64,000 bases of DNA from Planctomycetota bacterium (GCA_027001995.1 JALTLO010000177.1:754-64753); one strand, 5' to 3'. Positions 8,351-12,317 are shown, counted from the stretch's first letter. Notes: generated from the letters alone by a model not told the origin. Numbers and translations: made by a program.

Positions 8351-8374
8351 CCTGGCTAAGGAGGGGTGAAATTG

Positions 8375-9022
8375 ATGGGTTTCTATGACCGTCGAATTTT
8401 ACCCCACATCATTCATTTGGTTTGCGGATCTGCCAAGATCAAGGCTGAGCGGCTAAAGGTCGTACCCCAAGCTGAGGGCCAGGTCTTGGAAATTGGCATG
8501 GGGTCTGGCCACAATCTGGCGCTCTATGATCAAGACAAGGTAGAGCAACTCTGGGGCTTAGAACCGTCCGCGGCCATGCGCCAGAAGGCTCGGAATAATG
8601 TCGAAGCGAGTGGGATGGAAGTCACATGGCTTGATCTTCCCAGCGAGACGATTCCTTTGGCTGATGAGAGTGTGGATACCGTTGTCCTCACATTTACCCT
8701 TTGTTCTATCGCTGATTGGCGTGGAGCTTTAGGGGAGATGGGGCGAGTCTTGAAGCCCCAGGGCAAATTGCTCTATTGCGAGCATGGCTACGCACCCCAA
8801 GGGCGTGTGCGTCGTTGGCAAGATCGTCTCAACTCTTCTTGGAAGAAGATCGCTGGGGGCTGTCACCTCAATCGACGGATCGAAGATCTCTTGGTGGAGT
8901 CCGGTTTCGTCCTTCATTCTCCCCAACGAGGTTTTGTCCCTGGTGCTCCCAAGTTCTCGAGCTACATCTATTGGGGCTGCGCTTCCTATGCTCAGGATTC
9001 GAAATCCCTGTCGGAGTCGTAA
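8375..9022 (+). CDS. Class I SAM-dependent methyltransferase (Methyltransf_11-like)
   Basis: VLEIGMGSGHNL, DTVVLTFTLCSI, RVLKPQG and GGCHLNR. AAGGAGG at 8358-8364 favours a start at 8372 or 8375 over 8366. Confidence 0.88.
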   Translation: MGFYDRRILPHIIHLVCGSAKIKAERLKVVPQAEGQVLEIGMGSGHNLALYDQDKVEQLWGLEPSAAMRQKARNNVEASGMEVTWLDLPSETIPLADESVDTVVLTFTLCSIADWRGALGEMGRVLKPQGKLLYCEHGYAPQGRVRRWQDRLNSSWKKIAGGCHLNRRIEDLLVESGFVLHSPQRGFVPGAPKFSSYIYWGCASYAQDSKSLSES

Positions 9023-9047
9023 GGGGAGTAGGCCTGTTCTTTGGCAG

Positions 9048-9083
9048 GAAAAAGAAAGGCCGATGCAAAGCATCGGCCTTTCT
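9048..9083. terminator. Rho-independent terminator between convergent genes, strongest on the minus strand
   Basis: Perfect 14-bp inverted repeat AGAAAGGCCGATGC-AAA-GCATCGGCCTTTCT (9053-9083), followed on the minus strand by a T-tract. Confidence 0.85.
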
Positions 9084-9137
9084 CGCAAGTGTGGTTGTGG
9101 GCCTAAGGTGAGCTGCGGGCTCTAACCCGCTTCAGGC

Positions 9138-10325
9138 TTAGTAGCTGCCTGTCACTCCACCTTCGGTTGTCTTTCCTTTACGAGCGCCCGTGATTCCACC
9201 AAACGCTTTGCGTTTGTGATCAAGGGAGACTTCGATTTCAGCATCTTTCGGTACACGCACGGTGACCGGACTAAAACCGCCGCCTCAGCACCCACCAAAC
9301 TTGGCCGTCTTGATTTCCCGGCCTTTCTTGTCTTTGATGACAAATTTAGGTGGTGCTCCGTCTGGGACCCAGTTGTAATATTCCTCACCGGCCTTACCGT
9401 AGAACCAAAGGCTCTGCGGTGAGAAGGTGATTTCTTCGCCATTGCGTGTGTATTCGAATTCGGCGCGGATTGGCGCGCCCCACGCGAATACAGATGGCTC
9501 GTCCGCTGTGACGCGGATAGGCTTGGCTGTACCACCCTTAATAAGAGCAGACTCCTTACCCATAGTGATTTTGCCTGCAGCGATCGAGTAGAGACCCTCT
9601 GGGACGAGGAATCCTTTTTTCGCTGAAGCCATGTTGAAGGAATAGTCACCATTCTCAGAAACTACGATTGCAGCAGTGAGTTTGGCTTTTGCTTTGTACT
9701 TGGCGCGCAGGTTGAGAAGACCAGCTTTACCAGAGTAGGGCTTGTAAGAAATCTTTGAACCATTTTCAGGGACTTCGATTTCGAAAAGCTCACCCTTGAC
9801 GCTGATCACGCGCGACAAGAAAGAAGCGACATCCGTTTTGCCTACGACCATAGCGTCTTCACCGAAATCGTTGAAGCGGCCATTGTTGTTTTGGTCGATG
9901 AGCTTAACTTGTACACCGTTGACTTTACCGACATGGGCACCGGAAGATGACCACTTCCAACCGCCCTTGTTTTGAAGGCGGACTGTGTACTTGAACTTTG
10001 TGCCGTTGGCATCTTTACCCTTGAGGGTAAGAAGGCCACCGACGCCTTTGGCTTTTTCATCCACTTTGCCGTCTGCATTGCAGTCGACTGCCAAGGCCAT
10101 GCCATCGATTTCAGCTTTGAAGCCGTCACCAATTTGAATGGACCCTGCAACAGGGGTGAAAGTTTCCTTAGGCAAGAGAATATTCCACTTCGAATACGAG
10201 GTGTACTTCATCTTCGCAACTTGCACTTGATCGTCTTCATTGTTCGCGGCCGCGAAGTTTGAGACGTAAGCGAAGCAACCCAAGAGAGCAGCTGTCGTAA
10301 GAAGTGAACCGATGAATTTCTTCAT
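9138..10325 (-). CDS. Exported protein of unknown family, predicted selenoprotein (UGA at 9287-9285 read as Sec; 395 aa, ...KFGGC-U-GGGFSP...)
   Basis: AGGAGG RBS at 10337-10332, signal peptide and DxNxDG-type Ca-binding-like loops. The in-frame TGA after Cys is followed by 48 open codons to TAA 9140-9138, a SECIS-like hairpin and then the terminator. The CDS is well supported; the readthrough is inferred. Confidence 0.75.
9234..9278 (-). promoter_or_regulatory. Putative bacterial SECIS element
   Basis: mRNA after the UGA reads GGCGGC GGUUUUAGU C CGGU CAC CGUGC GUG U ACCG AAAGAU GCUGAAAUC. It has a lower stem (9 bp, 3 wobbles), an internal loop and an upper stem with a bulged U. The 5-nt loop has GU at positions 2-3 and starts 24 nt after the UGA. 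Confidence 0.6.
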
Positions 10326-10612
10326 AACGGTCCTCCTAGGATTAATAAAATTACAACACGTGTTTGTGATCGGGATGGTTGGTTAGGAAGGGATTCCGCC
10401 GCTCATCTCTCTCACTCCCGAAGACTAAACTATTTACGATGCAGAAATAGCACTATTCTCAGTCTATTGTGCGGGAAGAAATGATTACCGATCGCCATAA
10501 ACGCTTGGTAGGATTTCTGTTGTAGAGCGATTTTGCTCGGTTATCCCGTCTCATTCATGAGATTGTGGTCGTGAATTATTCGGGTCAGGGGCCCCTAGGG
10601 AGATCTTTTGCC

Positions 10613-11164
10613 ATGAATAAGAACGCTCAGGCCCGTTTGGGCGACATTCGCTGTCTCCAGGGGGACATAACCGACTGTGAGGTGGACGCGATTGTAAATG
10701 CGGCCAATTCCTCGTTGATGGGGGGCGGGGGAGTCGATGGAGCGATCCATCGCGCTGCAGGCCCTGCCTTGGTTCATGCCTGCCGCGCTCTTCAGCCTCC
10801 GGGCTGCGAAACCGGGGAGGCCAGAATCACATCAGCTTTTGACCTCAAAGCTCAGTTTGTCATTCATACAGTGGGGCCGGTTTATCGGGACGGAAGCGTG
10901 GGCGAATCAGCACTTTTGGCCTCCTGCTACCGCTCTTGTGTGAAGTTGGCTGCGCAAAACGATATCCAGACGATGGCATTCCCGGCAATCTCCTGTGGAA
11001 TCTTCGGTTACCCGGTGGGAGAGGCTGCTGCGATTGCTCTTACAAGCCTCGCTGAAGCTTTGGGAGAAAACCCAGATGTTTCCCATATTTCGATGGTGCT
11101 GTTCGAGGAAGAGGTCTACCGGATTTTTCAGGAAACTCACAAACTCCTTGGAGCCGGATCCTAA
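10613..11164 (+). CDS. Macro domain protein, O-acetyl-ADP-ribose deacetylase (YmdB-like)
   Basis: GDIT, IVNAANSSLMGGGGVDGAIHRAAG, VIHTVGP and AFPAISCGIFGYP. GGAGA before ATG 10613. Confidence 0.92.
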   Translation: MNKNAQARLGDIRCLQGDITDCEVDAIVNAANSSLMGGGGVDGAIHRAAGPALVHACRALQPPGCETGEARITSAFDLKAQFVIHTVGPVYRDGSVGESALLASCYRSCVKLAAQNDIQTMAFPAISCGIFGYPVGEAAAIALTSLAEALGENPDVSHISMVLFEEEVYRIFQETHKLLGAGS

Positions 11165-11282
11165 TACAGGTCTTCTGTCTACTTCACGACTTCGGGGCCG
11201 CGATCTTGTGACTTAGTCGAGTTTATCTTGGCCTTGTTTTCCTTTTGTGAATTTTTTTGGATTGGGGGCCGATAAGGGCCTC

Positions 11283-12317
11283 ATGACATCCGATTTAGTC
11301 TTAGAAACAACACCGTCTCTCCTTGTTGACCAAACCCCTGAATCTCGCCTTGGGTTAGAAAGAGCCGCTCGGCGCCGTGAACTTGAGGGAAAGCCCCAGT
11401 TCTTTGGCGATGGGCGCAAATGGATCCCATTTCAAATGATGGATCCGGCTCTTAGGATCGCCCGAGGCGTTCTTTCTCTTGCTGGGGTGTATCGTCCTTT
11501 GGCCTCCCGGGCTACGAAAATCAACGTGGTCGAAAATGAAGTTTACCTCCGTGGGGTGAAGCCTGGAGTCGAAGGGGCCCGTATTCTCCATCTTTCGGAT
11601 TTGCACATTGATGGTTCTCCTGGGTTGGGCAAACGTTTGGCTGAGGCTTGTGCTGAAATTGACTTTGATGTTGCTGTTTTGACGGGAGATCTGCGCCTTG
11701 AGATCAAGGGAGATTTCACCCCAGTACTTGAGGAATTGGCGCCTCTCATCGAAGTTCTCAACGGTTGCGAGCACGGGGTTTTTGCTATCTTGGGCAATCA
11801 CGATGAGTTGGACATGGTGGCGCCCATCGAGAGTATGGGCGCGACCTACTTACTAAATGAATCCTGTGGAATCGAAATGGGCTATGACCAGCTTTACCTA
11901 GCGGGCGTTGATGACGCTCATTTCTTCGGCACGGATGATATCGATTCGTCTTTGCAGCAGGTGCCGGCGGATGAAACTTGCCTCTTTCTTTGCCATAGCC
12001 CTGATCTCATTCAGGAGGCAGCAGAGAAATACTGCGATATGTATCTATGTGGTCATACCCACGGTGGGCAGATTTGTTTACCAGGTGGCAAGCCAATCGT
12101 TTCGAATGCCAGCGTGTCTCGGCGGTTCTGCACCGGACCATGGTTGCTTGGAGGTATGCGAGGTTATACATCCCGAGGAATTGGGTTTTCCGGTATTCCA
12201 TTCCGTACCCATTGTGATGCCGAGCTGATTGTTCATGTGATCAAACGAGAGCGAAGAGGAAGTCAGCGTCTGTTATGTGAAGAGATAGCAGAGCAAGAGC
12301 TTTTCGACGACGCCTAA
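11283..12317 (+). CDS. Calcineurin-like metallophosphoesterase (YkuE/YaeI-like)
   Basis: HLSDLH, LTGD, LGNHD, CHSPD and GHTHGGQ motifs. Start uncertain (11247 or 11283). Confidence 0.88.
   Translation: MTSDLVLETTPSLLVDQTPESRLGLERAARRRELEGKPQFFGDGRKWIPFQMMDPALRIARGVLSLAGVYRPLASRATKINVVENEVYLRGVKPGVEGARILHLSDLHIDGSPGLGKRLAEACAEIDFDVAVLTGDLRLEIKGDFTPVLEELAPLIEVLNGCEHGVFAILGNHDELDMVAPIESMGATYLLNESCGIEMGYDQLYLAGVDDAHFFGTDDIDSSLQQVPADETCLFLCHSPDLIQEAAEKYCDMYLCGHTHGGQICLPGGKPIVSNASVSRRFCTGPWLLGGMRGYTSRGIGFSGIPFRTHCDAELIVHVIKRERRGSQRLLCEEIAEQELFDDA

Follow-up and report, generated by a model that had tools for sequence, protein, structure and literature searches.

A probable SECIS-dependent selenoprotein from Planctomycetota with a Cys-Sec loop on a predicted exported all-beta scaffold, representing a large uncatalogued family

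In bacteria, selenocysteine (Sec) is inserted at an in-frame UGA when SelB, bound to a SECIS hairpin, brings Sec-tRNA to that codon. The formate dehydrogenases of E. coli are the type example of such SelB/SECIS selenoproteins, and the gene described here has in common with them an in-frame UGA, the selABCD set, homologs with Cys, and a hairpin inside the open reading frame that carries G[U/G] in its apical loop and lies 16-37 nt downstream of the UGA. In mammalian thioredoxin reductase, a C-terminal Gly-Cys-Sec-Gly with vicinal Cys and Sec is the redox centre. A reading of our locus from the sequence alone (the sequence-only reading) had pointed to this parallel, and the local GCUG motif, with a possible vicinal selenylsulfide, is indeed common to both proteins. 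Here, however, another 48 residues follow the motif, which is internal and predicted to lie on a beta-sandwich loop; no FAD/NADPH domain was found by Pfam or in the all-beta model; and the motif varies among family members (UU, UC, CxxU). As the motif is internal and the fold unrelated, the comparison is retained only as an analogy.

SaoL (NF040728), SaoB (NF040727), SaoC (NF040734), HgcA (NF040863) and the KCU-star proteins (NF033934) also share the Cys-Sec dipeptide. Database entries of SaoL likewise stop short, missing about 50 residues at the true end, and SaoB and SaoC are exported, as predicted for the present protein. However, the NCBIfam models of those families match neither this protein nor the 49 family members searched at E 0.1, the predicted fold is all-beta instead of MerB-like or that of a substrate-binding protein, no SAO/hgc neighbourhood was seen, and the hosts are Planctomycetota. 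Among the 119 families in Table 1 of a 2026 catalogue (PMC13188914), none of the entries fits by name, motif and domain; most families listed there are thioredoxin-like, whereas ours is predicted to be all-beta and exported. The motifs in the parts of the catalogue consulted include CU, UxxU and UxxxxU, with no adjacent UU. The families of Haft and Tolstoy (2025), as entered in that table, carry NCBIfam or Pfam identifiers, and neither library matches the present family. A literature search found no paper on the family and none on adjacent or consecutive selenocysteines; the deep-Sep, groundwater-survey and BSepDB candidate lists could contain the family, and the main text of PMC13326102, taken apart from its supplements, has no mention of “Planctomyc”. 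Set apart by Pfam, NCBIfam and Table 1 of PMC13188914, the locus is almost certainly a real, unannotated selenoprotein gene from a large uncatalogued family. Sequence comparison and the structural model place its product among the SECIS-dependent bacterial selenoproteins, and apart from thioredoxin-fold proteins, thioredoxin reductase and the Sao/Hgc proteins.

The window analysed here is a stretch of 64,000 nucleotides from a Planctomycetota bacterium, and the gene lies on its minus strand (Table 1). From the ATG at 10325, the frame runs for 346 residues to KFGGC, meets the TGA at 9287-9285, and continues for 48 sense codons to the TAA at 9140-9138. The open frame reported from sequence was thus re-derived as 395 residues with U347, and both acidic loops quoted at that time (DCNADGKVD and DQNNNGRFND) are present in the protein. 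Both loops are putative Ca sites, the first of them DxDxDG-like, and Ca would probably stabilise the mature chain. Their conservation was computed over 120 TGA-bearing sequences, where the second loop is among the best-conserved stretches of the protein. A hydrophobic N-terminal stretch occurs in 47 of 51 database proteins, and the protein appears to be exported via its signal peptide. A lipoprotein was ruled out, as the context of Cys17 is not conserved and only five of the 51 proteins have a lipobox-like motif.

A strong terminator had been claimed about 200 nt past the UGA. A 15-bp hairpin does occur there, between the selenoprotein gene and the convergent methyltransferase gene; however, it is only a plausible terminator, as only three U follow the stem and the hairpin is not among the calls of the consensus terminator scan. 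No sigma-70 promoter-like site was found for the gene, and an Rfam search over 8800-10700 gave nothing at the gathering score, with no SECIS family among the matches. The neighbours in the window are ordinary: a convergent class I methyltransferase (8366-9022) on one side and, on the other, divergent genes for a macrodomain O-acetyl-ADP-ribose deacetylase (10565-11164) and a metallophosphoesterase (11247-12317). The runs listed as containing the stretch include no RNA data.

Table 1. Coordinates of features of the selenoprotein gene in the window and of related features at other loci
Feature	Coordinates	Strand	Basis or remark
Predicted selenoprotein gene	9138..10325	-	395 aa with UGA 347 as Sec; standard calling gives 346 aa
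Shine-Dalgarno AGGAGG	10332..10337	-	6 nt 5' of ATG; sequence
Predicted signal peptide, residues 1-27, probable Ala-Ala-Ala cleavage	10245..10325	-	Read by eye
N-terminal all-beta region (predicted), residues 36-200	9726..10220	-	AlphaFold2 models
Acidic loop 1, D81-D89, DxDxDG-like, putative Ca site	10059..10085	-	Conservation: D81 0.92, D85 0.86, G86 0.92
Acidic loop 2, D144-D157, putative Ca site	9855..9896	-	Conservation: D144, G149, D157 1.00; N148 0.93
C-terminal Ig/FN3-like beta-sandwich (predicted), residues 285-383, with Cys-Sec loop	9177..9473	-	AlphaFold2 model, fold search
Cys346 (TGC), vicinal to predicted Sec	9288..9290	-	Sequence
In-frame UGA, predicted Sec347	9285..9287	-	Of 94 loci mapped, TGA at 93 and TGC at the other (among loci listed)
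Candidate SECIS core, 7-bp stem, one bulge, loop CGUGC at 9261-9257	9249..9268	-	23 nt past UGA
48-codon extension past UGA	9141..9284	-	Codon-position differences against 10 homologs
15-bp terminator-like hairpin after TAA	9052..9084	-	-25.8 kcal/mol, z -8.1
Bat-like operon in the window's genome	L112:932-17166 = G000 C31:6431-22665		775-aa, 504-aa, MoxR, DUF58, BatA-N, vWA, 2117-aa TPR
714-aa exported paralog, Ala-rich N-terminal part	L111:8020-10164 = G000 C141:100019-102163		Same beta module, no Cys/Sec
UGA-UGA genes, first UGA	L007:4519, L011:6042, L019:6024, L026:5943, L032:5743, L033:5949		
TlpA/redoxin fusions	L025:4323-4889, L029:4055-4624, L038:5955-6524, L061, L063, L068, L071		

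We conclude that the UGA at 9287-9285 almost certainly encodes selenocysteine in a SECIS-dependent selenoprotein gene (probability roughly 97%). The alternative is that translation really stops at this codon (or that a changed code makes it Trp or Gly), with the 346-aa protein as the product. It has two observations in its favour: every database record terminates at the UGA, and at least 48 open codons follow the TGA in 174 of the 1035 long TGA-ended frames of the genome (17%). The open codons by themselves are within chance; the case rests on the homologs and the SECIS. A protein search gave 51 matches, one being the window's own protein, and the other 50 all end at the residue before U, including the “hypothetical protein” records MFT7620708.1, MCA9319266.1, MEZ6194941.1 and MEE9392618.1; the expectation that standard annotation would truncate the protein is thus borne out in the databases. 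A profile search extended the family to 1261 clusters (50% identity) at E ≤0.001, 199 of them at 1e-30. From 149 new representatives, 131 reach the site, and 107 of these terminate no more than three residues from it.

At least 105 loci were fetched (42 genomic and 63 metagenomic among the loci listed, with some duplicates), and 94 could be mapped to the site, the 11 omitted being fragments or distant forms. Among the loci listed, the site codon of these 94 is TGA in 93 and TGC in one. TAA or TAG at the site, which would have marked a true stop, was found in none, and distinct TGA contexts numbered 114 after later fetches. The 41 mapped genomic loci among those listed come from Planctomycetota (35), Verrucomicrobiota (2) and unlabelled sources (4). 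Past the UGA, the extensions comprise 36-58 aa, or 187-189 aa in six redoxin-fused loci. Beyond the SECIS, the first, second and third codon positions have 43, 28 and 116 differences to 10 homologs, a coding-like pattern, and the extension is conserved, as a selenoprotein had been expected to show. Homologs with Cys at the U position were also found: among 21 run-through representatives, the U column holds Cys in 12, Trp in none and Gly in one, with the non-Cys residues belonging to distant forms, and Cys is present as well at loci L099 and L161.

An error in the TGA had also been considered. A contig from another study, with 58 differences over 9048-10450, spans the TGA site as well, and no difference in 9170-9302 appears among the 40 listed of its 58. 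Assembly error was ruled out by this second contig together with the conservation of the site, and a pseudogene was ruled out as no mapped homolog listed has TAA or TAG. Reassignment of TGA to Trp or Gly was likewise rejected: no Trp occurs in the U column, RF2 is present in the genome, and TGA, which ends 681 of 1652 open frames of at least 400 codons, is the commonest stop, so TGA is not globally reassigned. A true stop would moreover cost the last domain three strands in the model. With the site always TGA or Cys among the mapped loci listed, a conserved extension and a covarying SECIS, we regard a true stop or a changed code as highly improbable.

Some features of the contigs themselves are of interest. 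For 30 of the 51 database matches, the longest contig is only 1115-1399 nt, and at L048, L053, L054 and L074 the contig leaves 10-90 nt 5' and 7-28 nt 3' of the read-through gene; one Cys-form cluster is on contigs of 613-46,576 nt. We infer that the gene-sized contigs may be assemblies of single-gene transcripts that run past the UGA.

The hairpin was examined in an alignment of 75 distinct 57-nt sequences starting at the UGA; this set excludes the Cys form and also the redoxin-fused loci, which have a shift of one codon. The apical pairs 24-34, 25-33 and 26-32 are paired in 72, 75 and 71 of the 75 sequences, respectively. Pair 25-33 alone has undergone 40 two-sided changes and occurs as six pair types; as column 25 is a first codon base and column 33 a wobble base in a different codon, a silent base here tracks an amino-acid change. 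The lower stem has two registers, with or without a bulge. The covariation score of the SECIS exceeds those of all 500 shuffles and all slid controls, with the relatedness of the sequences a caveat, and third-position change per codon is 0.28 inside the SECIS versus 0.58 past it. A stem of at least six pairs with a G-led loop is present in 93% of the 114 distinct TGA contexts versus 22% of random TGC/TGT sites. The loop reads CG[UG]G[AC] in 82 of 108 single-U genes, whereas the two Cys-form genes with DNA have CGCCC and CGCGC, not CG[UG]G. In PMC13188914, the bSECIS consensus is a loop of 3-9 nt with G in the first two places, a stem of 4-16 bp, a distance of 16-37 nt from the UGA, and an MFE of -7.5 or lower; the window hairpin agrees with that account (CGUGC, 7 bp, 23 nt), its core energy of -7.7 kcal/mol being marginal. 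By energy alone the hairpin is unremarkable (z -0.6 for 54 nt, z -2.2 for the core), and a genome-wide scan for the family hairpin gave 71 matches, mostly spurious.

The machinery for Sec insertion, whose presence was a point left to be checked, is complete in the genome (92% complete): selA, selD and tRNA-Sec are on contig C148 and selB is on C17. The genome's selD itself has one in-frame TGA. Of 23 genomes of the same class, all with selA, 19 have a TGA copy of the family gene, another has a copy whose contig ends right at the site, and the remaining three carry a distant paralog only. In a sample of 301 genomes of the phylum, 86 have a family match, with a TGA inside the match in at least 36 among the matches listed. 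All 36 of these TGA-bearing genomes (among the matches listed) have selA, versus 221 of 301 overall, a comparison in which kin are not independent; in the three matched genomes without a selA match, the family matches stop short of the site. The selA rate in the phylum sample is itself high and indicates much selenocysteine use. In one family of genomes, and seen in that family only, all three TGA-bearing members have a TGA copy of short form (about 340 aa) immediately 5' of selD-selA, in the same orientation (L163:106-3636, L164:2030-5499 and L165:1-3375). SelD at these three loci has Cys, not Sec, and a GlmL-like gene is located upstream in two.

An AlphaFold2 model of residues 27-395, built from a 146-row alignment, has a pLDDT of 95.7 and a pTM of 0.91 and consists of strands only. 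The thioredoxin fold was not seen: the model has no helix of four or more residues, and there is no thioredoxin Pfam match. The predicted Sec is residue 321 of the model, in a loop between strands 311-316 and 328-331. As the last three strands (model 328-331, 338-346 and 350-356), which complete the C-terminal sandwich, are encoded past the UGA, a stop at that codon would leave the domain incomplete. Many FN3/Ig chains align weakly over model residues 259-357 (best Z 4.5, rmsd 2.7 A over 75 residues, searched within the whole model). With the whole model, the best Foldseek match has E 2.5e-4 and TM 0.13, and the best VIA match Z 4.7. For the N-terminal region, the best match is to residues 76-268 of tripeptidyl peptidase II (Z 4.8, rmsd 3.0 A, 78 aligned), and Foldseek gave nothing at E 0.001. 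Neither the whole model nor the N-terminal region has a match to a solved structure at Z ≥5, which is not proof of a new fold, and the best E in a sequence search of the PDB was 0.27.

Pfam gave no match to the window protein at E 1, nor did NCBIfam at E 0.1, where five weak unrelated matches occurred in 1-3 of 49 members; the impression that the protein fits no recognised selenoprotein family was therefore confirmed in these two libraries. In the ESM Atlas, the matches are hypothetical Planctomycetota clusters only, one of which has GEVED in 38% of its members (a weak lead). No longer fused forms were found at 1e-10, and this is weak evidence, as the search missed long paralogs seen elsewhere. 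The same module, lacking Cys and Sec at the site, also forms the end of some larger proteins, among them the 714-aa exported paralog in the window's genome (Table 1); most genomes of the class have long paralogs of this kind. In P0172 and P0175 a zf-HC2 anti-sigma zinc finger at the start is joined to the family module at the end, which suggests use of the module as an extracytoplasmic sensor domain. As distant paralogs without Cys or Sec carry the same module, the scaffold also serves purposes other than redox.

Among 125 locus sequences, the motif is CU in 96, xU in nine, UU in six, CxxU in six and UC in three, with no U in five. Of the 81 distinct contexts that the first two scans gave, 80 have a second Cys or Sec at positions -4 to +7 of the U. 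The genes with a lone U and no Cys close by are those at L096, L140, L142 and L152, three of these four being from later loci. Variation of this kind would follow if the function depends on two neighbouring chalcogens. In a FastTree tree of 140 sequences, with a distant non-Sec paralog as the root and weakly supported deep nodes, Cys forms nest inside Sec clades, which suggests that Sec is ancestral in the family. Cys-Cys forms persist across a whole clade.

The six genes with adjacent UGA codons occupy five places in the tree, so adjacent Sec-Sec codons would have arisen about five times. A single origin was ruled out (delta lnL 491, p-AU 5e-5, with few replicates and 34 selected sequences). 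Each of the six has one family-type hairpin, whose loop is 20-26 nt from either UGA, and in two genomes (G012 and G014) both paralogs are UU. If full-length protein is made from these genes, both UGAs must be decoded, and we infer that both become Sec. Taken together, the family may represent a new class of extracytoplasmic selenoenzyme, with a non-thioredoxin all-beta scaffold that has no solved relative, an ancestral Sec, a loop in which Cys and Sec are permuted, and UGA-UGA genes giving vicinal Sec-Sec (a diselenide) under one SECIS; we consider this joint proposal tentative, at somewhat less than an even chance.

The main family group consists of two clades, A and B, with the window's gene in clade A. 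Clade A stands alone: a gene for a 775-aa exported protein, found downstream of 58 of 60 clade-B genes, follows none of the 29 clade-A loci with room downstream. In clade B, this partner is followed by genes for a 500-aa protein, MoxR, DUF58, BatA-N, vWA and TPR proteins. The clade-B paralogs thus head an operon similar to the Bat (MoxR-DUF58-vWA) operons known from Bacteroides aerotolerance, with the differences that the window's own gene is outside and that the two genes after the selenoprotein gene are without a curated family. The window's genome has such an operon on contig C31 without a clade-B gene (Table 1), and its 775-aa and 504-aa proteins gave no curated family match. In two relatives the C-terminal part of the 775-aa protein weakly resembles Omp28, and no CxxC was seen there by eye. 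Bat proteins have been proposed to keep the periplasm reduced, and in Leptospira biflexa no role for them in oxidative stress was found, according to PMC3557215.

Six clade-B loci run past the UGA into a TlpA-type CxxC domain; in a seventh the contig ends before the gene does. As this domain is fused past the UGA, standard calling splits one gene in two. Four T-U members of the fused subclade have a new Cys at U+6. In another clade-B subclade (L076, L080 and L091), a gene for an exported CxxC thioredoxin is directly upstream. Across the loci, the 73 flanking proteins scanned have no common family. One subgroup of clade A has a gene for a molybdopterin oxidoreductase upstream in the same orientation (L017:971-3811 and L023:450-4795), preceded at L023 by an NrfC/NrfD-like gene, and two close relatives have a gene for a tricorn-like S41 protease after that of the selenoprotein (L010:6333-9632 and L011:6359-9688).

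The function of the protein is probably redox chemistry outside the cytoplasm. SelB, on the hairpin at 9268-9249, would deliver Sec-tRNA at UGA 347, and translation would run on to the TAA. The signal peptide would export the protein, giving a mature chain of 368 residues with all-beta domains, and in the model Cys346-Sec347 would be displayed on a Gly-rich loop of the last Ig-like domain. The target of the Sec selenolate, periplasmic or on the cell surface, may then be a disulfide, a peroxide or an oxidised protein; the adjacent Cys (or Sec) would close a selenylsulfide (or diselenide), which exported TlpA/thioredoxin proteins would reduce again; and the beta domains may serve as a docking scaffold. 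A redox centre is favoured on two grounds: the family very rarely lacks the partner chalcogen, although its place shifts, and ties to exported CxxC reductases occur independently in two subclades. However, the thioredoxin links are in two clade-B subclades, with the window's clade-A gene standing alone; four lone-U genes have no nearby Cys, and paralogs without Cys or Sec share the module; and CU motifs are tied to metal handling elsewhere. The whole explanation, a two-chalcogen periplasmic redox centre recycled by TlpA/thioredoxins with the mechanism included, stands in our estimate at about even odds.

Those CU motifs lead to the main rival of the redox reading, in which the Cys-Sec loop is a periplasmic chelator for soft metals or metalloids (Hg, Cu, Ag or As) and the protein is a scavenger, chaperone or sensor. 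Haft and Gwadz tie CC/CU motifs to heavy-metal interaction (10.1101/2022.07.06.499078), and any two-chalcogen arrangement could chelate. Part of the stretch is contained in 11 listed runs; five of these carry an organism label, in each case that of a hydrothermal-vent metagenome, and one may be the source. Moreover, clade B heads an operon with MoxR and vWA genes, and MoxR has been postulated to load metal into vWA domains (PMC3557215). However, the 73 flanking proteins scanned include no metal-resistance family, the fusions found are to CxxC redoxins and not to metal transporters, and homologs come from many independent genomes and metagenomes, so we consider metal binding unlikely, if worth keeping in view.

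Two further functions were considered. A structural envelope or adhesin protein, cross-linked through Cys/Sec to itself or to a partner such as the 775-aa protein, would suit the all-beta, multi-domain architecture, the faint resemblance of the model (Z 4.5 or less) to domains of pilins, S-layers and adhesins, and the presence of the partner gene after 58 of 60 clade-B genes and none of 29 in clade A. However, a static cross-link needs no Sec, the fold matches are at background level, and the window's genome keeps the partner operon without a clade-B gene, all of which makes such a role rather improbable. A selenium store, carrier or sensor, that is, an abundant exported protein whose read-through follows selenium supply, could account for the copies directly before selD-selA, for the paralogs that are independently UU in two genomes, and for the many clade-A genes on gene-sized contigs if these are transcript assemblies. 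One or two Se per 40 kDa would be poor storage, however, a whole clade persists with Cys-Cys, and the selD-selA link is confined to one family; we regard this role as quite improbable.

These results have several consequences. The work adds a large selenoprotein family, which annotation truncates across a poorly cultured part of Planctomycetota, and it would place Sec on an exported all-beta scaffold instead of the thioredoxin fold. On a single loop, the family offers a natural series (CC, CU, UC, UU, CxxU and lone U) in which the advantage of selenium over sulfur may be tested directly. The UU genes, with loops 20-26 nt from the UGAs, also make it possible to ask whether a single bacterial SECIS suffices for Sec insertion at two adjacent codons, a question that bears both on the mechanism of recoding and on recombinant selenoprotein production.
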